Positions 1 through 8,386 of a stretch of DNA of 8,386 nucleotides are shown here, piece by piece (position 1 is the stretch's first letter; the number at the start of each line of letters is the position of its first letter). Under the pieces are notes generated by a model, which ran no database searches, was not told the origin of the DNA, and saw nothing but the letters and a program-made list of their open reading frames with translations. The position numbers and the translations under genes are program-made. Origin of the DNA: a virus (lineage: Duplodnaviria; Heunggongvirae; Uroviricota; Caudoviricetes); IMG/VR virus record IMGVR_UViG_2541047931_000004, positions 1 to 8,386 of that record; one strand, 5' to 3'.

Positions 1-1284
1 TTACTTCTTCGCCTCTGCAACCACTTTACTACCCACGCCGCGGTTATTGTATTCCCACATGCGGTTGTAGTTAGTGTCATTCAGATTGCGCTGTATTTCG
101 TCGTTATCATCTACGCTGCCGGTATTACCCGCAAACGGACGATTAGAGATCACCGCATCGGCCCACGGTTTAGCCGTGTTAAAACCTTCGTTGATGGCGC
201 TATCACGGATCACCACCTGACCGTTGGTATTGGCATCAACATCCAGCGAGCGGCCCAGTTGCGCCACACCATCACCGAAAGCATTGAAACGGCTGTTTAC
301 GGCGAGGAAACCGTAGTAAATGTTGGACAGCGTAGCCGGTGCAAACACATACGCTTCTTGCTGAGTACGTGAGTTCACCACGCGGAATTCGGTGTTATCG
401 AACACCACTGCGCCGCGACCAGAAACGATATCCACATCCCCTTCAATGTAGCTGTTGGTCACCAGCGTACGCGGCTGACGATTCGTTTCCAGACGGTTCT
501 GCACACCGCTGTTGGTGACAAAGAAGGTGTTCTGACGACCGAGAATGTTAACGTTGTTAATCTGTACCTGGTCACCATCAGTACGCAGTGCCACCGCCGG
601 ATGGTTACCTGCATCTACGCTATCGCCCAGCGTGTTTTCGATGGTCAGATTTTGCAGTTGCAGGCCATTGTTTTGTGACCAGAAGACCGCAGAGCAGAGA
701 ACACCGATACTGTCGCTGCGTTTGCTCTGGCAGCTATCGTACATATACCACGCTGGTTTACCTGGCATATATTTGCCGCGCGGGTTGACGTCGTGACGCC
801 AGTCGGCAGGGCTCATGCCACCATCAAGGGAAAGCCCAATCTTCACATCAATCGGTTTTTCACCTGTACCGTACAGAGTAATTCCACCCGGAGCGGCAGG
901 GACATATACCGTTCCCTGATACTCACCAGGCATCACGGCAATATACTGGCGCTTGTTGGTACGCTTGATAATTGCCGCATCTACCGCCGCCTGAATCGTG
1001 GTATGCGTTACACCTTGAGTGCCCGCCGGGCCGACAACAAAGTCAGGTTGCGCAGGCAGGGTAATCAGGGAAGGATTCCACGCTGCAGCACCTGGTGTCA
1101 GGGATGAAAAATAGTGTTGAGCATCGAAATTCTGCGCTTCTTTTGCCGACAGAATCGGGCGAGAAGAGGTACCAGGCGCGGTTTGATCAGAAGGACGTTG
1201 ATCGGGCGGGGTTGAGCTACAGGCGGTCAGCGTCACGCCAAAAGCCAATGCCAGCGCCAGACGGGAAACTGAAAATGTGTTCAC
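1..1284 (-). CDS. ybhC: YbhC-like outer-membrane lipoprotein, pectinesterase-fold (CE8-like) putative acyl-CoA thioesterase; chromosomal gene flanking the prophage
   Basis: Complete 427-aa ORF, GTG start at 1284 with GGAG 6 nt upstream, TAA stop at 1..3. N-terminal lipoprotein signal with lipobox LTAC followed by SS. Pectinesterase-like motifs seen in the translation (GEYQG, PAVALR, LGRS). Sequence recognised from memory as E. coli YbhC, which lies beside lambda attB. Confidence 0.85.
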   Translation of the reverse strand: MNTFSVSRLALALAFGVTLTACSSTPPDQRPSDQTAPGTSSRPILSAKEAQNFDAQHYFSSLTPGAAAWNPSLITLPAQPDFVVGPAGTQGVTHTTIQAAVDAAIIKRTNKRQYIAVMPGEYQGTVYVPAAPGGITLYGTGEKPIDVKIGLSLDGGMSPADWRHDVNPRGKYMPGKPAWYMYDSCQSKRSDSIGVLCSAVFWSQNNGLQLQNLTIENTLGDSVDAGNHPAVALRTDGDQVQINNVNILGRQNTFFVTNSGVQNRLETNRQPRTLVTNSYIEGDVDIVSGRGAVVFDNTEFRVVNSRTQQEAYVFAPATLSNIYYGFLAVNSRFNAFGDGVAQLGRSLDVDANTNGQVVIRDSAINEGFNTAKPWADAVISNRPFAGNTGSVDDNDEIQRNLNDTNYNRMWEYNNRGVGSKVVAEAKK

Positions 1285-1330
1285 AGGTTGCTCCGGGCTA
1301 TGAAATAGAAAAATGAATCCGTTGAAGCCT

Positions 1331-1345
1331 GCTTTTTTATACTAA
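1331..1345. other. attL core (overlap region O), lambda-type
   Basis: Exact 15-bp GCTTTTTTATACTAA, 47 bp upstream of the ybhC start and about 75 bp from the int stop. Identical to the lambda att core as I recall it. Confidence 0.9.
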
Positions 1346-1425
1346 GTTGGCATTATAAAAAAGCATTGCTTATCAATTTGTTGCAACGAGCAGGTCACTA
1401 TCAGTCAAAATAAAATCATTATTTG
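1346..1425. promoter_or_regulatory. P' arm of attL: IHF H' site and three Int arm-type sites (P'1 to P'3)
   Basis: TATCAATTTGTTG at 1371..1383 fits the IHF consensus WATCAA-N4-TTR. AGGTCACTAT (1392..1401), CAGTCAAAAT (1402..1411) and AAAATCATTA (1412..1421) fit the Int arm-type consensus C/AAGTCACTAT. Matches the lambda P' arm from memory. Confidence 0.75.
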
Positions 1426-2489
1426 ATTTCAATTTTGTCCCACTCCCTGCCTCTGTCATCACGATACTGTGATGCCATGGTGTCCGACTTATGCCCGAGA
1501 AGATGTTGAGCAAATTTATCGCTTATCTGCTTCTCATAGAGTCTTGCAGACAAACTGCGCAACTCGTGAAAGGTTGGCGGATCTCCTTCGAAGGAGAGAC
1601 CTGATGCTTTTCGTGCGCGCATAAAATACCTTGATACTGTGCCGGATGAAAGCGGTTCGCGACGAGTAGATGCAATTATGGTTTCTCCGCCAAGAATCTC
1701 TTTGCATTTATCAAGTGTTTCCTTCATTGATATTCCGAGAGCATCAACATGCAATGCTGTTGGGATGGCAATTTTTACGCCTGTTTTGCTTTGCTCGACA
1801 TAAAGATATCCATCTACGATATCAGACCACTTCATTTCGCATAAATCACCAACTCGCTGCCCGGTAACAACAGCCAGTTCCATTGCAAGTCTTAACCAAC
1901 ATGGTGATGATTCTGCTGCTTGATAAATTTTCAGGTATTCGTCAGCCGTAAGCCTTGATCTCCTTACCTCTGATTTTGCTGCGCGAGTGGCAGCGACCGG
2001 GTTTGTTGTTATATGGCCTTCAGCTATTGCCTCTCGGAATGCATCGCTCAGTGTTGATCTGATTAACTTGGCTGACGCCGCCTTGCCCTCGTCTATGTAT
2101 CCATTGAGCATTGCCGCAATTTCTTTTGTGGTGATGTCTTCAAGTGGAGCATCAGGAAGACTCCTCCTTATTGCTTTAATTTTGCTCATGTAATTTATGA
2201 GTGTCTTCTGCTTGATTCCTCTGTTGGCGAGAATTTTTTCGTAGCGATCAAGCCATGAATGTAACGTAACAGAATTATCACTGTTGATTCTCGCCGTCAG
2301 AGGCTTGTGTTTGTGTCCTGAAAATAACTCAATGTTGGCCTGTATAGCTTCAGTGATTGCTATCCTCCTGTCTCTGCCTAATCCGAACTCTTTACCCGTC
2401 CTTGGGTCCCTGTAGCAGTAATATCCATTGTTTCTTATATAAAGGTTAGGGGGTAAATCCCGGCGCTCATGACTTCGCCTTCTTCCCAT
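1419..2489 (-). CDS. int: Tyrosine site-specific integrase, lambda Int (356 aa)
   Basis: 356-aa ORF starting MGRRRSHERRDLPPNLYIRNNGYYCYRDPRTGKEF, recognised as near-identical to lambda Int. Its first 23 nt overlap the end of xis, as in lambda. Confidence 0.97.
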   Translation of the reverse strand: MGRRRSHERRDLPPNLYIRNNGYYCYRDPRTGKEFGLGRDRRIAITEAIQANIELFSGHKHKPLTARINSDNSVTLHSWLDRYEKILANRGIKQKTLINYMSKIKAIRRSLPDAPLEDITTKEIAAMLNGYIDEGKAASAKLIRSTLSDAFREAIAEGHITTNPVAATRAAKSEVRRSRLTADEYLKIYQAAESSPCWLRLAMELAVVTGQRVGDLCEMKWSDIVDGYLYVEQSKTGVKIAIPTALHVDALGISMKETLDKCKEILGGETIIASTRREPLSSGTVSRYFMRARKASGLSFEGDPPTFHELRSLSARLYEKQISDKFAQHLLGHKSDTMASQYRDDRGREWDKIEIK

Positions 2490-2685
2490 TTCTGATCCTC
2501 TTCAAAAGGCTACCTGTTACTGGTCGATTTAAGTCAATCTTTACCGCTGATTCGTGGAACAGATACTCTCTTCCATCCTTAACCGGAGGAGGGAATATCC
2601 TGCACTCGCGTACCCATCGACGAACTGTTTCAAGGCTTCTTGGGCGTCGCTGGCGTGCGTTCCACTCCTGAAGTGTCAAGTACAT
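2467..2685 (-). CDS. xis: Excisionase Xis (72 aa)
   Basis: MYLTLQEWNARQRRPRSLETVRRWVRECRIFPPPVKDGREYLFHESAVKIDLNRPVTGSLLKRIRNGKKAKS, recognised as lambda Xis. Start taken at the internal ATG (2685) of the 85-aa six-frame ORF. Confidence 0.95.
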   Translation of the reverse strand: MYLTLQEWNARQRRPRSLETVRRWVRECRIFPPPVKDGREYLFHESAVKIDLNRPVTGSLLKRIRNGKKAKS

Positions 2686-2697
2686 CGCAAAGTCTCC

Positions 2698-2711
2698 GCA
2701 ATTACACGCAA
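2698..2711 (-). promoter_or_regulatory. cII-type activator site TTGC-N6-TTGC of the int promoter pI (-35 region)
   Basis: Minus strand reads TTGCGTGTAATTGC, ending 13 nt upstream of the xis ATG. This is the arrangement of lambda pI, whose transcript starts inside xis and so expresses int alone (established lambda knowledge). Confidence 0.6.
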
Positions 2712-2733
2712 GAAAAAGCCGCATTGATGCGGC
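2711..2733 (-). terminator. Putative intrinsic terminator just upstream of pI/xis
   Basis: On the minus strand, a 7-bp stem GCCGCAT/ATGCGGC with a 2-nt loop is followed by TTTTTCTT. Function not demonstrated. Confidence 0.4.
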
Positions 2734-2791
2734 GATGGTAGGTCTGGATATCTTGAGAAATGAACAGGCCTCATTGAGTGTGAGGCTGTGG

Positions 2792-3136
2792 TTAGTCCTT
2801 GCGTAGCTCGCTAATTCTTCTGTAAGTCTCTGGTGCTTTGTTTCCGTGTATCTTCATTTCAGACTTCAACAGAGCAACGAGGGAATCCCATTCGTTGAGG
2901 ATTCCTTTGAATGCCGGAACGCGCTTTGCAACCTTGTCGAATGAATCTCTGATTTCTGGAATCTGCTCAACAAGTGCAACGCATCGCCGGAAGTCTGCTG
3001 CGTCATGTGGAGCGCCGAAGTGATGACCATAGATATTTTTTTTCAGTCCACATGCGATTGAGGCAAGAGTTGCGCTACTGATGCCGACATCGCCAGTTGA
3101 TTGCCATTTCAAAACCTTCATAGCCAAATCTGACAT
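2792..3136 (-). CDS. Hypothetical phage protein (114 aa)
   Basis: ORF 2792..3163. Start preferred at 3136 (MSDLAMKVLKWQ) because GGAG lies 7 nt upstream; the ATG at 3163 overlaps the upstream stop (TGATG) and is the alternative. No family recognised. Confidence 0.6.
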   Translation of the reverse strand: MSDLAMKVLKWQSTGDVGISSATLASIACGLKKNIYGHHFGAPHDAADFRRCVALVEQIPEIRDSFDKVAKRVPAFKGILNEWDSLVALLKSEMKIHGNKAPETYRRISELRKD

Positions 3137-3162
3137 TTCTTGTCTCCAATAAAAAACCGCCA

Positions 3163-3330
3163 TCAGGCGTCTTGGTGTTCTTTCAGTTCTTCAATTCGAA
3201 TATTGGTTACGTCTGCATGCGCTATCTGCGCCCATATCATCCAGTGGTTATAGCAGTCGTTGATGTCCTCTGCTTCGATAACCCTGTCGAATGGCTCTCC
3301 ATTCCATTCACCTGTGACTCGGAAGTGCAT
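3163..3330 (-). CDS. Small hypothetical phage protein (55 aa), below the six-frame track cutoff
   Basis: Hand translation: MHFRVTGEWNGEPFDRVIEAEDINDCYNHWMIWAQIAHADVTNIRIEELKEHQDA. GGAG 7 nt upstream of the ATG; the stop overlaps the next start (TGATG). Weak recollection of a similar small protein near xis in lambdoid phages, unverified. Confidence 0.55.
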   Translation of the reverse strand: MHFRVTGEWNGEPFDRVIEAEDINDCYNHWMIWAQIAHADVTNIRIEELKEHQDA

Positions 3331-3340
3331 TTATCATCTC

Positions 3341-3368
3341 CATAAAACAAAACTCGCCGTAGCGAGTT
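3341..3368 (-). terminator. Putative intrinsic terminator between the DUF551-like gene and the 55-aa gene
   Basis: On the minus strand, stem AACTCGC / loop TACG / GCGAGTT followed by TTTGTTTTAT. Confidence 0.5.
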
Positions 3369-3430
3369 CAGATAAAAGAAATCCCCGCGAGTGCGAGGAT
3401 TGTTATTCACCTTTGACGGCAAGTTGCAGG

Positions 3431-4324
3431 TTAGCCACGGTTAACCTCCTGCGGCGGTTCTGGTAGAGGCATCCAGTGTGACGGTTTCCACGACGCACCA
3501 GGAATTATCCACCCATCATTAGCGTCAGGATGCCCCGGGATGTAAGTAGCCCATTTCATTCGCCAGTCACCTTTCCTGTCAAACTCCACGGCAACAAGAA
3601 CGGCTGTTTTGGTATTCGGCATTCGCTCACTACAGCTTATCCAACCATCCGGAGTTACCGGAACTTGCGGAATGGCTGTCTGCTCTCGAACGTCATTAGG
3701 CGCTATAGGTTCTGCTGCCAACTGACTGGCATATTTGTTAATGGTAACGATAAGCTCTTGCTCAGCCTCATCCAGACAATCACCGATACCTCGCCTGTCA
3801 CCGTCAAAATCATCGAAATCGGCACGAATCTTGGCAACCTTCTGGATTGCGGACAACACCTCACTAGGAATTACCGGATAGTTGGTTGACGTTTCCGCGA
3901 TTTCCCGAAAATTATTGGTTGACGAATTCTTGTTTTCCCGAAAGTTTCCGGACTGAAGCATGGCGGCGCGGCAGGCGTTCCAGCCTCTCACCTCTGCAAT
4001 AGCGGCAACAGCATCAACCGCGTACATGCTAAGAGGATTAGGCATTGGTTTTTCTTCCGGTACTACTGGAACGGGGGGAGCGGCGTAGACCTCAATAATT
4101 CCATTATCAATAGGCCATTCTCCATCCTTGAGGTAGTCACTTGTGCCGTCAACTTGCTGTTCTGCAATGTGGAATGCACCTATTGGTTTTGCTTCCAGCG
4201 ATGCCAGAGCAATTCGTGCCAGTTCTTCCGCTTCTTCTGCTGGCAGTACAACGTTGCTATCAGGTCCGTATGTTTCGCGCCACTGCTTGATTGTCAGCAG
4301 TCGCTCTTTGGTAATAGTGATCAT
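3431..4324 (-). CDS. DUF551-like domain phage protein (297 aa)
   Basis: C-terminal segment PDGWISCSERMPNTKTAVLVAVEFDRKGDWRMKWATY...WMPLPEPP resembles the DUF551 domain common in enterobacterial prophage proteins (from memory). AAGGA RBS; ATGA overlap with the upstream gene stop. Confidence 0.75.
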   Translation of the reverse strand: MITITKERLLTIKQWRETYGPDSNVVLPAEEAEELARIALASLEAKPIGAFHIAEQQVDGTSDYLKDGEWPIDNGIIEVYAAPPVPVVPEEKPMPNPLSMYAVDAVAAIAEVRGWNACRAAMLQSGNFRENKNSSTNNFREIAETSTNYPVIPSEVLSAIQKVAKIRADFDDFDGDRRGIGDCLDEAEQELIVTINKYASQLAAEPIAPNDVREQTAIPQVPVTPDGWISCSERMPNTKTAVLVAVEFDRKGDWRMKWATYIPGHPDANDGWIIPGASWKPSHWMPLPEPPQEVNRG

Positions 4325-4836
4325 GCCGCGTTTCCTTCTTTCTTATTAACAATTACACCGTCATATATTTCATTAAGGTGCCCTCTCAACTCCATGCGCC
4401 TTAATGCAGATAACATGTAATCGCATTCAACCTGCTTATTCCCAATAAAAGGTTTATCTTCAGGGTTACCCCAACAGCAATTCCCCTTGGGCCATCCATG
4501 TACTTTCCGTACTCTTCCGTTAACAACGTGAAGTAATCCCCAGCCGGAAGGTAAATCCTCAACTGAAATAATTCCCGGCTCACTAATAAAGAATCGCCAG
4601 TCGCCCATTCCAAGAGATGGATTTTTACGAAAACGCTTTTTTCTATCTGCCAACAAGTCAGCACGAGAACACTTCGCCTCTATCAGGCATGATGCTGAAT
4701 TTCTGAACCCCATAGCATCTGGCTGTTCTCCGGTACTGGTTACAGCTATAAAGCGGTCATGAAAACAAACCTTGAACCCGTTGCGCTTAAGGAACTTATA
4801 CGCAATCTGACAGAGTTCGCGGTGTGTTAACGCCAT
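4321..4836 (-). CDS. Putative PD-(D/E)XK nuclease-fold protein (171 aa), possibly MmcB-like
   Basis: Start taken at the internal ATG (MALTHRELCQIAYKF) with AAGGAG 7 nt upstream. Motif order helix with E (RELCQIAYKFLKRNG), then PD (GEQPDAMGF), then ExK (CLIEAKCS), consistent with the restriction-endonuclease-like fold. Family assignment is a guess. Confidence 0.7.
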   Translation of the reverse strand: MALTHRELCQIAYKFLKRNGFKVCFHDRFIAVTSTGEQPDAMGFRNSASCLIEAKCSRADLLADRKKRFRKNPSLGMGDWRFFISEPGIISVEDLPSGWGLLHVVNGRVRKVHGWPKGNCCWGNPEDKPFIGNKQVECDYMLSALRRMELRGHLNEIYDGVIVNKKEGNAA

Positions 4837-4837
4837 A

Positions 4838-5026
4838 TCACTCTCCTTTAGTGCGCAAGTGGTTTTTCCAGCGGTTTTGCGCCGCGCTGGGCTTTTTGCA
4901 AAAACCACAATCCATCATCCCGTAATATTTCATCAACCCCATCCGTCGGTTGCTGAGTCTCACCCACTGCCAGACGCCAGGAGCGTTTCTACGAACTAAC
5001 AGAATCTTTGCTTTACGGTTTTTCAT
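4838..5026 (-). CDS. Small basic ORF (62 aa), MKNRKAK copy 2
   Basis: MKNRKAKILLVRRNAPGVWQWVRLSNRRMGLMKYYGMMDCGFCKKPSAAQNRWKNHLRTKGE. Its start overlaps the stop of the upstream mini-ORF (ATGA), and its last codons contain the RBS of the nuclease gene. Weak RBS of its own; coding status uncertain. Confidence 0.35.
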   Translation of the reverse strand: MKNRKAKILLVRRNAPGVWQWVRLSNRRMGLMKYYGMMDCGFCKKPSAAQNRWKNHLRTKGE

Positions 5027-5199
5027 CTTACAGCGTACCCTTTCTTCCGCCTGTTCTGTGACGCAGTAGGCTTACGCTTTGCGGCAAAAGCCACCTGACC
5101 AAATGGATGGAGTACCGCTATCTTATGGTTGCTAATAACCAGCTCCACCACACGCACAGGTCGCTGTAAAAAAAGTCGTTTTGCCTTACGGTTTTTCAT
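5023..5199 (-). CDS. Small basic ORF (58 aa), MKNRKAK copy 1
   Basis: Hand translation: MKNRKAKRLFLQRPVRVVELVISNHKIAVLHPFGQVAFAAKRKPTASQNRRKKGYAVR. AGGAGA 8 nt upstream. Shares its first 7 residues and about 20 nt with the downstream 62-aa ORF. Coding status uncertain. Confidence 0.35.
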   Translation of the reverse strand: MKNRKAKRLFLQRPVRVVELVISNHKIAVLHPFGQVAFAAKRKPTASQNRRKKGYAVR

Positions 5200-5371
5200 C
5201 GCTTTGCTCTCCTGCGTCTCTTTGCTGCTCGTCGTGCCGCTGCAATACCGGTATGGCGGCGCTTTGGTGACGGGATGATGTTGTCAGCCATCAGTACATG
5301 TGGCTTTGCAATTAGCGCAGAAGCCCAAAAACGAGTCGGGTACGGTAACAAGCCGATACATGCCACACGCA

Positions 5372-5848
5372 TTACTCACCTCCTTTGATGCGAATGCCAG
5401 CGGTGCGTGGCACATTAACTTCCACGATGCGCACTGTTGGTTTGTACATCTCAATCGCTGTCAGCCAGTCAGCTCCTGTCATGCGCTTTTCCGCATCGCC
5501 ATTAGTCCACTGAACCGGTACACCAATAGCCTTCATCGCGATTTCTATTTCCCCGGCAATGGCGCTTTTTCCGCAACCAGTAAAACCAGATACAACGACA
5601 AGAACTTCGCCTTTTGCTGGTTTTATTTCCCGCGTCTCCATCTCTGCAATTCGGCATATAGAATCAATATTTGTGTCTTCTAGGCGTTTAACTTCATCCA
5701 ACAATGCCAACGCGATATCTGGCGAAAAGTGCTTCATAAAATCGTTAAGCGCATTAATTCGCTGATCGAAAGGCATTACAGGTGCTTCACCAGCAATTTT
5801 TGTTTTTTCAGCGATTTCACGAAGCTTTTGATAATCAATCTTGCTCAC
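5372..5848 (-). CDS. Putative Ead/Ea22-like family protein (158 aa) with a C-terminal Walker-A-like motif
   Basis: GTG start at 5848 preferred: AAGGAGG 6 nt upstream and GTGA overlap with the upstream stop; the six-frame start at 5869 has no RBS. The N-terminus [15 protein letters not shown] resembles Ea22-like proteins as I recall them. C-terminal [28 protein letters not shown] fits GxxxxGKS. Confidence 0.65.
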
Positions 5849-6012
5849 TGGTTGCCTCCTTTGCGCCACATCGCATTCAGATATTTGTTTTGATTCACTG
5901 ATGGAAAAGAATTTCTCTTAAGCAATTCCTCTCTCGATGGCATTGGCTTTACGCGTTGGCGAATAATCATTTCTGCCGGAAGAATGCCGGGATTGTATGC
6001 AAGTCCTCTCAT
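5845..6012 (-). CDS. Small hypothetical protein (55 aa)
   Basis: [55 protein letters not shown]. Start at 6012 chosen for GAGG 8 nt upstream; an alternative ATG at 6030 overlaps the upstream gene by 8 nt. Stop overlaps the Ea22-like GTG start. Confidence 0.4.
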
Positions 6013-6022
6013 GGTAAATTCC

Positions 6023-6319
6023 TCAGTCATTACTGATAGCGCCATAGCGTGAGCGGTAATTACGCAGGCGCGGGTCGATATATTCAGGGAAGTGGGTATA
6101 TGTGGCTTTGCGGAATGGTCGGATTGATGTTTCGTTTGTTCGGTCCTTCTCATTTTTTAACGCGAGTTGTATATCGCGTCGGTACATCCGTTCTGCTTTT
6201 GTTTCTGGTGGCAGATCGATAAACGTGTCGAAAATGTTTTTGATATTTTCCAGCACCTCCGCCTTGGAGCTACCGGAGCAATTGCGCGGGGCATCCGCAC
6301 CATACAGAGGCGCTGGCAT
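6023..6319 (-). CDS. Hypothetical phage protein (98 aa)
   Basis: ORF begins 23 nt after the SSB-like gene stop, with a weak AGG RBS. Charged, lysine- and arginine-rich. No family recognised. Confidence 0.55.
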
Positions 6320-6342
6320 AATGGGAGCCTTATTTTCAGTAA

Positions 6343-6930
6343 TCAGAAAGCAGGGTAATCGTTCTGGCTGTAACCATAATCATCTGCATGATTCTGGCTT
6401 ACGTTTTTAGAGCGATTGTCTTTATCTTTGAGATTGGCAACCATGTTGGCGATAGTTTCTGGTTGCTTGCCTTCTGCCTTTTCTTTAAGGGTTTGACCTG
6501 TTTGTGCAATAAACGGGATGCGTATTTCCATCTGGTAGTTGTCTGCGCCAGTCTTTTTGTTTGTAGTTAATACTTTCTGGAGCACTAACCCGATTTTCTT
6601 TCCATGAAATTCAGGTGCAACAAATTTACTGGCGGAAACCATATGCTGCGTTAATTGTCCAATCCCGGCACACCCCATCATGGCGTGAACGACATTTGCG
6701 CCAAATTTGTTTTCCGTTCCGTCATTTTTCTGAACACAGACGCTAAGATATTGGATTTTACGTCCGTCGTCGGATTCTCCAGAAAACTCAATAAATTTGG
6801 CTCCTTTTTCTGATTGCTTTAGTTCTGCTTCAGTAATGGTAATGATATGGGCGCCAGTTTCGTTAATAAAACCACCTTGCCCTGCGGTCAGTGCTGCTTC
6901 TTCGTTATAAGTAAAAATCACGTTGCTCAT
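6343..6930 (-). CDS. Putative phage ssDNA-binding-like partner of Sak4 (195 aa)
   Basis: ATGA overlap with the Sak4-like gene stop; AAGGAA RBS. C-terminal tail DDYGYSQNDYPAF is acidic/aromatic and ends in Phe, like the C-terminal tips of E. coli SSB and T7 gp2.5. No canonical SSB motifs recognised; function inferred from tail and context. Confidence 0.6.
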   Translation of the reverse strand: MSNVIFTYNEEAALTAGQGGFINETGAHIITITEAELKQSEKGAKFIEFSGESDDGRKIQYLSVCVQKNDGTENKFGANVVHAMMGCAGIGQLTQHMVSASKFVAPEFHGKKIGLVLQKVLTTNKKTGADNYQMEIRIPFIAQTGQTLKEKAEGKQPETIANMVANLKDKDNRSKNVSQNHADDYGYSQNDYPAF

Positions 6931-7607
6931 GCGGCGTTTTCCTTAATTTGATGAACATTATTGATGCCGTAGTAATCACAAACAGTGGCATCGACGAAAG
7001 AGAGATCGTTATCAATCTCATTGGAATCAAACATTCCCATTGGGGATTTGACAGTGTCTGCACCGTTGTTTTTCGTGGTGAAAAAGAACTGGTCATCGCG
7101 GGTAAGAGTGCGAAGAACTATAGTAAACATGCCTTCGACAGTGATTTTCTCGTCCAGCATTTTGCCGATAGTTTTCATTTTCACGCGCCCCATAGGGGTT
7201 TCTTCGGTATGTGCAAGAAAATAGACTCTCAGGTCATCAGGTGCATCCTGTGCAGCCTTAATCACCTCCCATGCGTGGCGGCCTATCTCAGTAAATTTAT
7301 CAAACGATTTTTCTTCTGAGCGGCGCATAAACTCATTGCTCATCACATACTGGAAGTCATCAACAATAACGATTCTTTTTCCGTATTCGTGAGCACGCTT
7401 AATTACAGCAACTATTACGTCCCATTTGTCAGTGGTAACTACGGTTCCTTTTTTTGCTCTGGCATCCCATGCAAGCCAGTCTTTTGATTTAAATGGTAGC
7501 GGCTTGCCTATTGGTTTTATAAGTATTGCTTCCTCTGGATTGATATTTCTCATGCTGGTTGATTTTCCGGTGCCAGATTCACCGAGTATTAATGTCGCAG
7601 TTCCCAT
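6927..7607 (-). CDS. Sak4-like RecA-fold recombination ATPase (AAA_24-type core, 226 aa)
   Basis: Walker A GESGTGKST at residues 9..17 and Walker B-like RIVIVDD. Size and position match Sak4-type single-strand annealing proteins of phages. GAGG RBS 6 nt upstream. Confidence 0.8.
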   Translation of the reverse strand: MGTATLILGESGTGKSTSMRNINPEEAILIKPIGKPLPFKSKDWLAWDARAKKGTVVTTDKWDVIVAVIKRAHEYGKRIVIVDDFQYVMSNEFMRRSEEKSFDKFTEIGRHAWEVIKAAQDAPDDLRVYFLAHTEETPMGRVKMKTIGKMLDEKITVEGMFTIVLRTLTRDDQFFFTTKNNGADTVKSPMGMFDSNEIDNDLSFVDATVCDYYGINNVHQIKENAA

Positions 7608-7615
7608 AATTTGCC

Positions 7616-7804
7616 TCAGAATGGTAATTCGGATGGGCAGGAAAGAAATTCGCGCTCATTCATGCGCTCTCTTTGCGCCTGCCATAAACAAAGTTGTTTC
7701 TTTGATTTATCTCCCGCTTTACGCCAGTAACGAGCCTCAGCAATGTGATATTCTCTTTTTAATCGACTTAACTCTGGAGTTTTCGCCAGTTCTACCGGAA
7801 TCAT
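7616..7804 (-). CDS. Hypothetical phage protein (62 aa) occupying the position of lambda gam
   Basis: Start at the second ATG (MIPVELAKTPELSRLKREYHIAEARYWRK) with GGAGG 5 nt upstream; ATGA overlap with the kil-like stop. Not similar to lambda Gam as I recall it. Confidence 0.55.
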   Translation of the reverse strand: MIPVELAKTPELSRLKREYHIAEARYWRKAGDKSKKQLCLWQAQRERMNEREFLSCPSELPF

Positions 7805-7914
7805 TTTGACCTCCATTTTCTGTAGGCTTCTACGGCTTCACGAAACATCTTTTCATCGCCAATAAAAGTGGCGATAGTGAATTTAGTCTGGATAGCCATA
7901 AGTGTTTTATCCAT
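7801..7914 (-). CDS. kil: Kil-like host-killing protein (37 aa), C-terminus diverged from lambda
   Basis: MDKTLMAIQTKFTIATFIGDEKMFREAVEAYRKWRSK. The first 27 or so residues match lambda Kil (MDQTLMAIQTKFTIATFIGDEKMFREAV) from memory. AGGAG RBS inside the cIII 3' end; overlaps cIII by 8 nt. Confidence 0.6.
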   Translation of the reverse strand: MDKTLMAIQTKFTIATFIGDEKMFREAVEAYRKWRSK

Positions 7915-8047
7915 TTTTGGGAACTCCTGGCTGATTAAGTATGTCGATAAGGCGTTTCCATCCATCACGTAATTTACGTGTGATTCGTTCAAGTAAAGAT
8001 TCGGAAGGGCAGCCAGCAACAGGCCACCCTGCAATGGCATATTGCAT
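7907..8047 (-). CDS. cIII: CIII, FtsH-inhibitor regulator of lysogeny (46 aa, C-terminally shorter than the 54-aa lambda CIII)
   Basis: MQYAIAGWPVAGCPSESLLERITRKLRDGWKRLIDILNQPGVPKNG matches lambda CIII from memory, including the core helix ESLLERITRKLRDGWKRLIDIL. AAGGAG 6 nt upstream of the ATG. Confidence 0.85.
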   Translation of the reverse strand: MQYAIAGWPVAGCPSESLLERITRKLRDGWKRLIDILNQPGVPKNG

Positions 8048-8110
8048 GGTGTGCTCCTTATTTATACATAACGAAAAACGCCTCGAGTGAAGCGTTATTG
8101 GTATGCATAT

Positions 8111-8134
8111 AAAAAGGCCCTCACACTGGAGGGC
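8111..8134 (-). terminator. Putative intrinsic terminator upstream of cIII
   Basis: On the minus strand, stem GCCCTC / loop CAGTGT / GAGGGC followed by CTTTTTAT. Position resembles the lambda tL region before cIII (recalled, not verified). Confidence 0.5.
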
Positions 8135-8227
8135 AAAGAAGATTTCCAATAATCAGAACAAGTCGGCTCCTGTTTAGTTACGAGCGACATTGCTCACATA
8201 GCAGACTCGTAAATCTGCTATAGGCGC

Positions 8228-8386
8228 TTATTCGCATCGCATGACAACATCAAATTTTTCGAGATTACTTTGTCGCAACAATCCTTCTTCTACGCGGTCA
8301 GCTTTTCTATAATTATCAAATTCGAAATGTTTAATTACTTCTTTTGTTTCTCGCTCTATAACTTCAACGATGTATTTCTTATTCAT
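8228..8386 (-). CDS. Small AT-rich hypothetical ORF (52 aa); ATG is the last 3 nt of the window, so RBS and true start are not visible
   Basis: Hand translation: MNKKYIVEVIERETKEVIKHFEFDNYRKADRVEEGLLRQSNLEKFDVVMRCE, stop TAA at 8228..8230. Local AT content is clearly higher than the rest of the window. Could extend beyond the window. Confidence 0.35.
   Translation of the reverse strand: MNKKYIVEVIERETKEVIKHFEFDNYRKADRVEEGLLRQSNLEKFDVVMRCE

Follow-up and report, generated by a model that had tools for sequence, protein, structure and literature searches.

A mobile 68-residue module with a Walker A motif and a conserved glutamate in Ea22-like phage proteins, a candidate minimal P-loop domain

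Can a nucleotide-binding P-loop domain be as small as the C-terminal half of a phage accessory protein? The sheet on which natural P-loop nucleoside triphosphatase (NTPase) domains are built has five or more strands, and it is mainly engineered peptides that have served until now to explore whether the first beta-(P-loop)-alpha-beta element works alone. The question is raised here by a gene at 5372-5848, minus strand, of an 8,386-nucleotide stretch of Caudoviricetes DNA (positions 1 to 8,386 of IMG/VR record IMGVR_UViG_2541047931_000004; hereafter the window), for which a sequence-only reading had proposed an Ea22-like protein whose C-terminal half carries a Walker-A-like loop, either as a minimal nucleotide-binding module or as a convergent glycine-rich turn. 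We find that this motif belongs to a discrete, mobile module on which purifying selection is strong and in which exactly the Walker A residues and one glutamate, E143, are conserved, and we posit that the module could be a truncated P-loop core. The open reading frame (ORF) runs on the minus strand from 5848 to 5375, with a GTG start and its stop codon at 5374-5372, and has the following parts.

5855-5860, minus strand: Shine-Dalgarno sequence AGGAGG, six bases 5' of the GTG start (cctcct on the plus strand)
5372-5848, minus strand: complete ORF of 158 amino acids plus stop, an Ea22-like mosaic protein with a putative mini P-loop cassette
5669-5845, minus strand: Ead/Ea22 N-terminal region, residues 2-60 (Pfam PF13935)
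5633-5722, minus strand: long predicted helix, residues 43-72, presumed to be a coiled-coil stalk leading into the cassette (full-length AlphaFold2 (AF2) model, predicted local distance difference test score (pLDDT) 73-81)
5408-5611, minus strand: conserved 68-amino-acid candidate mini P-loop module, residues 80-147, with boundaries taken from conservation
5564-5587, minus strand: Walker A sequence motif GFTGCGKS, residues 88-95
5468-5503, minus strand: conserved loop of low model confidence, residues 116-127 (from conservation; pLDDT 59 in the domain model)
5420-5437, minus strand: last predicted hydrophobic strand TVRIVE, residues 138-143, with the codon of the Walker-B-like glutamate E143 at 5420-5422
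5375-5407, minus strand: C-terminal tail, residues 148-158, ending AGIRIKGGE, with similar tails in other Ea22-like variants

The Ea22 label given to this protein is upheld by a Pfam match to PF13935 (Ead_Ea22; residues 2-60, profile positions 1-79 of 139, E 1.4e-6) that scores 29.4 bits against a gathering cutoff of 27, and the exact 158-residue product carries the same name at NCBI ('ead/Ea22-like family protein' [Escherichia coli], on 16 contigs). It is an Ea22-family member through its N-terminal region only. Over its full length, the protein matched phrog_250 (E 1e-33), and its residues 66-158 matched phrog_11761 (E 3e-20); both PHROGs already cluster this family and are not annotated. 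One NCBI record names a relative "ATP-binding protein". The strand, P-loop and helix segments that had been read from the sequence are all present, as EVLVVVS (residues 81-87), GFTGCGKS (88-95) and the helix 1 segment (96-109), and the residues after the helix, put at about 45, number 49. By chance, a G-x4-G-K-[ST] motif would be expected about 0.004 times per 158-residue protein, and six-frame translation of the whole window yielded only one other, at 7560-7583, within a gene for an AAA_24 ATPase.

To map the distribution of the C-terminal half, residues 66-158 were compared with one representative per 50%-identity cluster of ~15 billion proteins, giving 446 cluster matches at E <=0.001, of which 352 were at E <=1e-10. 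Counts of architecture and of conservation among representatives refer to the 150 proteins listed of these 446 clusters (110-623 amino acids). In all 150, the matched stretch was query positions ~13-85, i.e., residues 78-150 of the protein, and among the domain hits of the matches listed the module was C-terminal in 132, internal in 11, N-terminal in 10 and flanked by <30 residues on either side in 2. Standalone proteins are known from a Burkholderiales metagenome-assembled genome (76 amino acids), Methylobacterium (84) and Mesorhizobium (87), and from IMG/VR (77 and 83), as found in scans of GTDB and IMG/VR, and N-terminal versions occur in Brevundimonas, Pandoraea and Burkholderia phage BcepC6B (gp37). 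What had been taken for the C-terminus of an Ea22 protein is rather a mobile 68-residue cassette that is also found alone.

Ecologically, the module is carried by phages and prophages of alpha-, beta- and gammaproteobacteria, and sits inside 347-380-residue proteins of jumbo lytic phages (~225 kb) that infect Ralstonia and Burkholderia; RSL2, RSF1 and SURPRISE13 are among the jumbo lytic phages with the module. In the jumbo Serratia phage KpHz_2, a 270-kb record without annotation, it lies in an unannotated ORF. A search for homologous proteins with the SURPRISE13 module as query returned no candidates, a scan of IMG/VR with the family profile returned near-identical E. coli copies only, and a scan of IMG/VR with the KpHz_2 type of module gave no matches. 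The cassette DNA is present in 403 of 5,426 complete E. coli genomes (~7%), on prophages and on ~90-kb phage-plasmids. A further relative came from structure comparison: an unnamed 82-residue viral protein in BFVD, A0A2I7R1C9, aligned with the domain model by Foldseek at 34% identity over 73 columns (template modelling (TM) score 0.54, probability 0.96). This unannotated protein is the sole convincing structural neighbour of the domain model and is probably another standalone member from a different phage group.

The left and right borders of the cassette are visible in its mosaic relatives. Residues 1-55 are common to lambda Ea22, P22-like EaA and P1-like variants, and the first ~52 residues of the window protein are identical in P22-like and P1-like Ea22-like proteins, whose middle parts are unrelated. 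At the other end, P22-like EaA finishes in NAGIRIKGE and a P1-like variant in ATGIRINGGE, and these closely similar tails mark the right-hand boundary of the cassette. With a common N-terminus, a common tail and unrelated middles, the P-loop segment thus behaves as an exchangeable cassette in a mosaic scaffold. When full-length BcepC6B gp37 served as query, 445 proteins were recovered, and the module was present in only 2 of the 120 listed, nearly all others matching the C-terminal domain of gp37; this C-terminal half (residues ~100-199; locus L001, 2914-3513) is itself a widespread cargo domain unrelated to the module, with relatives that are in some cases annotated as Ea22-like in Burkholderia and with matches to many PHROGs of unknown function.

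Evolutionarily, the module is held tightly. Between the window copy and enterobacterial homologues, the ratio of nonsynonymous to synonymous change (dN/dS) is 0.02-0.06, with the proportion of synonymous sites that differ (pS) near saturation at 0.55-0.69 and that of nonsynonymous sites (pN) at 0.05-0.11, and conservation starts sharply at G80 and stops at P147. Across 69 representatives, the invariant positions include G88, T90, G91, G93, K94, S95, A96, G99, E100 and E102, and also G109, W114, E120, K121, T124, D127, Y135, P137 and E143. When 17 sequences of 32-82% identity were aligned, including distant alphaproteobacterial, Burkholderia and jumbo-phage members, only G88, G91, G93, K94, S95, G109 and E143 remained invariant, of which G109 closes helix 1 and E143 is the last residue of the final hydrophobic stretch (TVRIVE in the window protein; VVLVE, VRVVE and VVLSE in other members). 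The conservation of the glycine, lysine and serine of the loop, on which the sequence-only reading had staked its proposal, is complete in the 150 cluster representatives and in homologues down to 32% identity. Helix 1 also bears a conserved surface motif, GEIEI, and the loop residues E120, K121, T124 and D127 are invariant in close and mid-distance members, while the loop is not kept in the most distant jumbo-phage members. The mean net charge of the module is ~ -2 (range -8 to +3), which fits a Mg-nucleotide ligand better than nucleic acid. We also considered that the module might be a dead remnant of a larger ATPase, a possibility rejected by the dN/dS values, the standalone forms and the wide spread.

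The glutamate changes how the missing part of the domain is seen. By definition, the Walker B motif places an Asp or Glu at the tip of the strand that neighbours strand 1; in the simplest topology, 2-3-1-4-5, that neighbour is strand 3 (PMC7758060). E143, a Walker-B-like residue present in 150 of 150 listed representatives, ends TVRIVE and is conserved as strongly as Walker A, so that the earlier statement that there is no clear Walker B has to be revised. Taken as a sequence pattern, the seven residues are those that would be expected for a P-loop phosphate site with Mg2+ held by the Walker A serine and the Walker B acid.

Structurally, several lines of evidence bear on the fold. Compared with the sequences of the Protein Data Bank (PDB), the family profile hit, among the matches listed, nothing other than P-loop NTPases and P-loop proteins that were engineered or designed. 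Nucleotide-binding domain 1 of SUR2 (E 1.2e-4) led, ahead of 6c2u, an engineered phosphate-loop protein (6e-4), and 9jix, a designed ATPase (8e-4; from strand 1 to strand 2), followed by UreG, gluconate kinase, UvrA and ArsA. Likewise, 24 of the 25 Pfam families that most members matched below threshold are P-loop families, with the ASCE and kinase-GTPase groups both represented. A domain-only AF2 model was of moderate quality (pLDDT 77, predicted TM score 0.64), with helices at 94-107, 118-123 and 128-135 and pLDDT values of 85-89 for residues 76-115 and 136-145, 78 for 126-135 and 59 for 116-125. A Walker A motif is a GxxxxGK[ST] sequence between strand 1 and helix 1, and this is where GFTGCGKS lies, helix 1 of the model spanning 94-107; a P-loop context of the module is likely. 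Structure prediction, which had been proposed as a check, bore out the helix right after the motif and did not yield the strands. As to topology, the 2-3-1 order of the kinase-GTPase group would be compatible with a self-contained three-strand unit and the ASCE order would not, because in the latter strand 4 intervenes, whereas in the kinase-GTPase group the Walker B strand touches strand 1. Between the two possibilities originally left side by side, a minimal nucleotide-binding module is favoured at the level of prediction, and a convergent glycine-rich loop is disfavoured, because the G, K and S positions are invariant and the sub-threshold profile matches fall to P-loop NTPases.

Mechanistically, we posit, with a rough probability of one in two, that the module is a truncated P-loop core of the kinase/GTPase type that binds a magnesium-bound nucleoside triphosphate (Mg-NTP) and is displayed on an oligomerising Ea22 stalk. 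Residues 80-147 would form an autonomous domain that keeps only the first three strands and two helices, in 2-3-1 order, laid out as strand 1 (EVLVVVS), Walker A (GFTGCGKS), helix 1, strand 2 (VPVQW), the conserved flexible loop, helix 2 and strand 3 (TVRIVE). K94 and the loop backbone would grip ATP or GTP by its beta and gamma phosphates, and S95 and E143 would hold Mg2+, as the Walker A Ser/Thr and the Walker B Asp/Glu do in full-size enzymes. Because the module is without strands 4-5 and a base-recognition element, binding and any hydrolysis would probably need two or more modules together, and the Ea22 N-terminal region and helical stalk could bring them together, since lambda Ea22 is a tetramer. 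Made from the early-left operon in lytic growth, the protein would then work on a highly conserved target, of the host or of a defence system, as a small switch or clamp that depends on nucleotide, with loop 116-127 and the GEIEI face of helix 1 as candidate contacts to a partner or between subunits. Only tentatively, as something possible rather than probable, do we extend this to the bolder claim that the 68-residue beta-(P-loop)-alpha-beta-alpha-beta-Glu unit is the smallest natural autonomous P-loop nucleotide-binding domain so far, binding and perhaps hydrolysing Mg-NTP only when oligomerised, and that phages have spread it as a nucleotide switch directed at a conserved host or defence target.

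The scaffold half of this proposal leans on lambda Ea22 (P03756), whose N-terminal ~55 residues are homologous to those of the window protein (38% identity to lambda Ea22 residues 1-46), and which occupies the same place, upstream of xis and int among the early-left accessory genes, and has the same plan of N-terminal region, helical stalk and exchangeable C-terminal cargo. The two differ in the cargo itself, which is unrelated: BLASTP similarity ends at residue 55, and the structure of the lambda C-terminal domain (PDB 8dsx) is found with the lambda Ea22 query and not, up to E 10, with the window protein. Full-length lambda Ea22 is tetrameric (PMC10834534), and by analogy, given the common N-terminal 55 residues, we infer that the window protein may oligomerise as well; a coiled-coil-like helix with 'IAELEAR' segments usually precedes the module in Ea22-type homologues. 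Lambda's and phi24B's ea22 genes have a reported pro-lysogenic phenotype (PMC7093339), which is not transferable to the window protein because the cargo differs.

For the module, the closest natural fold would be that of the kinase-GTPase group of P-loop NTPases in their simplest 2-3-1-4-5 topology, especially SIMIBI proteins and kinases of the APS-kinase type. SIMIBI members comprise BioD, SRP54/FtsY, ArsA/TRC40 and the GPN-loop GTPases, and the class is marked by nucleotide-dependent homodimerisation and by motifs such as a deviant Walker A or a conserved Asp following strand 2. Relative to the solved small kinases that it resembles, the module has 68 residues instead of ~170 or more, with room for three strands and not five or more, and relative to the kinase-GTPase group as a whole it is devoid of a lid, of NKxD or any other base-recognition motif and of a deviant Walker A, and its acid is a Glu where an Asp is usual. 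In size and in the minimal element used, it is comparable to engineered phosphate-loop proteins (6c2u/6c2v), 40-residue beta-(P-loop)-alpha peptides and the designed ATPase PL2x4_2 (9jix). These prototypes act via oligomers, and by analogy the coiled-coil display suggests that the module may do so too, whereas they are laboratory constructs, not homologous by descent and reported as nucleic-acid binders, and the module is natural, acidic, under selection and equipped with an added, conserved stretch, predicted to be a strand, that bears the Glu. Engineered beta-(P-loop)-alpha polypeptides of 40-110 residues bind single-stranded DNA (ssDNA), RNA, NTPs and polyphosphate as oligomers (bioRxiv 10.1101/2020.07.30.228619). 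Neither the signature of Walker A plus Glu nor the standalone forms are described in Pfam, NCBIfam, PADLOC or the literature on Ea22 and minimal P-loops that we searched.

Several observations weigh against a truncated P-loop core. Similarity to known P-loop families is always below the curated cutoffs and confined to the segment from strand 1 through the P-loop and helix 1 to strand 2, and the P-loop fold proper, an alpha-beta-alpha sandwich of three layers whose parallel sheet has at least five strands, is more than this module has, the 68-residue unit being without strands 4-5, a lid or a base-binding motif. The full-length AF2 model is poor (pLDDT 66), DSSP finds no beta strands in either the full-length or the domain-only model, so that the three-stranded sheet is predicted from sequence only, and Foldseek of the domain model against the PDB returned noise. 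Within the family, the E. coli branch has Asn, not Asp, directly after strand 2, and one member (L110; IMG/VR UViG_3300037156_000089, 2917-3330) has Gln at the position of E143 (…RVSIMQ…) and Ala at that of G91, and may be a binding-only or degenerate form. Finally, no conserved partner gene and no informative fused domain emerged from the loci and architectures compared, which leads to the genomic setting. The window is the left end of a prophage beside a ybhC-type gene, with these genes around the Ea22-like one.

1-1284: YbhC-type chromosomal gene (NF007822 equivalog, 727 bits)
1419-2489: tyrosine integrase
2467-2724: small xis-like ORF
3431-4324: DUF551 protein
between 4324 and 5372: several PHROG families without function
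5196-5372, minus strand: downstream neighbour, a 58-residue ORF (phrog_13831) whose ATG overlaps the stop of the Ea22-like gene (TAATG, 5370-5374)
5845-6012, minus strand: upstream neighbour, a 55-residue ORF of the DUF2737 family (phrog_1117; PF10930, E 4.6e-31) whose stop overlaps the GTG of the Ea22-like gene (GTGA, 5845-5848)
6023-6319: Abc2 anti-RecBCD protein, P22-type (PF11043, E 3e-36)
6343-6930: protein of phrog_743, similar to single-stranded DNA-binding protein (SSB)
6927-7607: AAA_24 ATPase, with the other Walker A of the window (GESGTGKS)

The overlapping junctions at both ends of the Ea22-like gene suggest translational coupling along the early-left operon. Beyond the window, an all-versus-all comparison of ORFs from 22 diverse loci showed that, besides the module itself (22 of 22) and its antisense shadow ORFs, only an integrase (4 of 22) recurred in more than three, and the DUF2737 ORF was absent from the other module-bearing loci compared. 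The standalone copies of Methylobacterium and Mesorhizobium also lie upstream of a phage integrase, at ~1 kb, among genes of a sort characteristic of this accessory region: a Lar-type restriction-alleviation gene (by Pfam) and ORFs that look ASCH-like and DUF551-like by eye only, unconfirmed by profile search. In two loci (L013 and L015), the genes found upstream of the standalone copies are unrelated to each other. Among fused partners, a Pfam search of 69 + 10 architectures found Ead_Ea22, an occasional zinc finger (DnaJ CXXCXGXG or Lar-like) and one DUF4406, none of them recurrent; motifs of the DnaJ-type zinc finger occur in only 8 of 149 representative proteins, a weak link to the module.

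Against this setting, other explanations can be weighed. One is that the half P-loop is a decoy or poison subunit, which, through edge-strand pairing or mimicry of the dimer interface, docks on a full-size P-loop ATPase of the host or of an anti-phage system and blocks its assembly or hydrolysis, as an anti-defence or host-takeover factor. The gene does lie in the accessory early-left region near the anti-RecBCD gene abc2, a Lar-type restriction-alleviation gene (by Pfam) stands two genes upstream of the module in a Mesorhizobium locus (L015), and very high conservation across phages of alpha-, beta- and gammaproteobacteria suggests a conserved target; in a 2-3-1 sheet, strand 1 would lie exposed at the edge, and the GEIEI motif offers a conserved surface. 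We nevertheless think it unlikely: no particular ATPase, of host or defence, shows significant similarity to the module, the protein matches no PADLOC defence model at E <=0.01, and a pure mimic would not need K94, S95 and E143 among its sole invariant residues. The same glutamate speaks against a second possibility, that the P-loop is a general anion hole, with ssDNA, RNA, polyphosphate or a signalling nucleotide as its ligand, serving for instance as a sponge, as invariance of E143 indicates metal coordination instead of bare anion binding, and an acidic module is unfavourable for polyanions. That engineered beta-(P-loop)-alpha polypeptides bind such ligands as oligomers, that 6c2u is among the best sequence matches and that the neighbours are recombination genes (AAA_24 ATPase, SSB-like protein, Abc2) keeps this reading in view, as a quite unlikely one.

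The weak structural signal could also mean that GxxGxGKS is a turn or a protein interface in a novel domain of small size, alpha/beta or mostly helical, its likeness to Walker A being convergent. The DSSP result for both models, the empty Foldseek comparison with the PDB and the sub-threshold status of all family matches would agree with this, and we still judge it improbable, given a full motif with a hydrophobic stretch before it and a helix after it that stays invariant over wide divergence together with a Glu closing the last hydrophobic stretch. Least credible of all, and largely refuted, is a split NTPase whose missing strands and Walker B are supplied in trans by an adjacent gene product, an idea that the overlap of neighbouring ORFs with the start and stop of the gene encourages by suggesting co-translation. 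The 55-residue ORF at 5845-6012, named earlier as the downstream place to seek the Walker B, turned out to be 5', i.e., upstream, of this minus-strand gene; it is a DUF2737 protein without an hhhhD/E strand and is unlinked to the module elsewhere. Moreover, the integrase is the only non-overlapping neighbour family in more than three of the 22 loci compared, and the standalone and N-terminal forms stand in unrelated contexts.

Whichever function applies, a widespread natural family keeps just the beta-(P-loop)-alpha-beta element plus a candidate metal-ligand glutamate under selection, and is a testable natural model for minimal phosphate or nucleotide binding. With the truncated P-loop core, one common variant of Ea22 also gains its first concrete hypothesis in biochemical terms, within the poorly understood accessory proteins of that name in lambdoid, P22-like and P1/D6-like phages. 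The evidence from sequence for a minimal P-loop unit in nature is clean and touches on the debate over P-loop origins, and that from structure is weak. If the bolder claim above is true, the module would be a living counterpart of the reconstructed P-loop ancestors and a plug-in nucleotide switch spread by phages that exists also as free proteins of 76-87 residues.

A few further features of these loci deserve mention. The prophage end (1-2724) looks like integration at a lambda-type attachment region, and Abc2, the SSB-like protein and the AAA_24 ATPase form a recombination block upstream of the Ea22-like gene (6023-7607). In Methyloversatilis (L010), motif inspection showed that a zinc-finger region of the DnaJ CXXCXGXG type is fused to the module on its upstream side, and in Mesorhizobium (L015, 3210-3977) the gene directly upstream of the module has a sub-threshold match to DnaJ_CXXCXGXG (E 4.6e-4). 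At 4321-5026, minus strand, a 62-residue ORF (4838-5026) corresponds to positions 1-61 and a 195-residue ORF (4321-4908) to positions 58-230 of the 230-position PHROG 9263, so that a gene that is single elsewhere is in two overlapping frames here, by a frameshift, as a pseudogene or as a genuine split. The first of these ORFs also has a tandem paralogue: the small phrog_1380 ORFs at 4838-5026 and 5023-5199, minus strand, both start MKNRKAK, and their 5' ends share a 21-nucleotide direct repeat (5007-5027 and 5180-5200).

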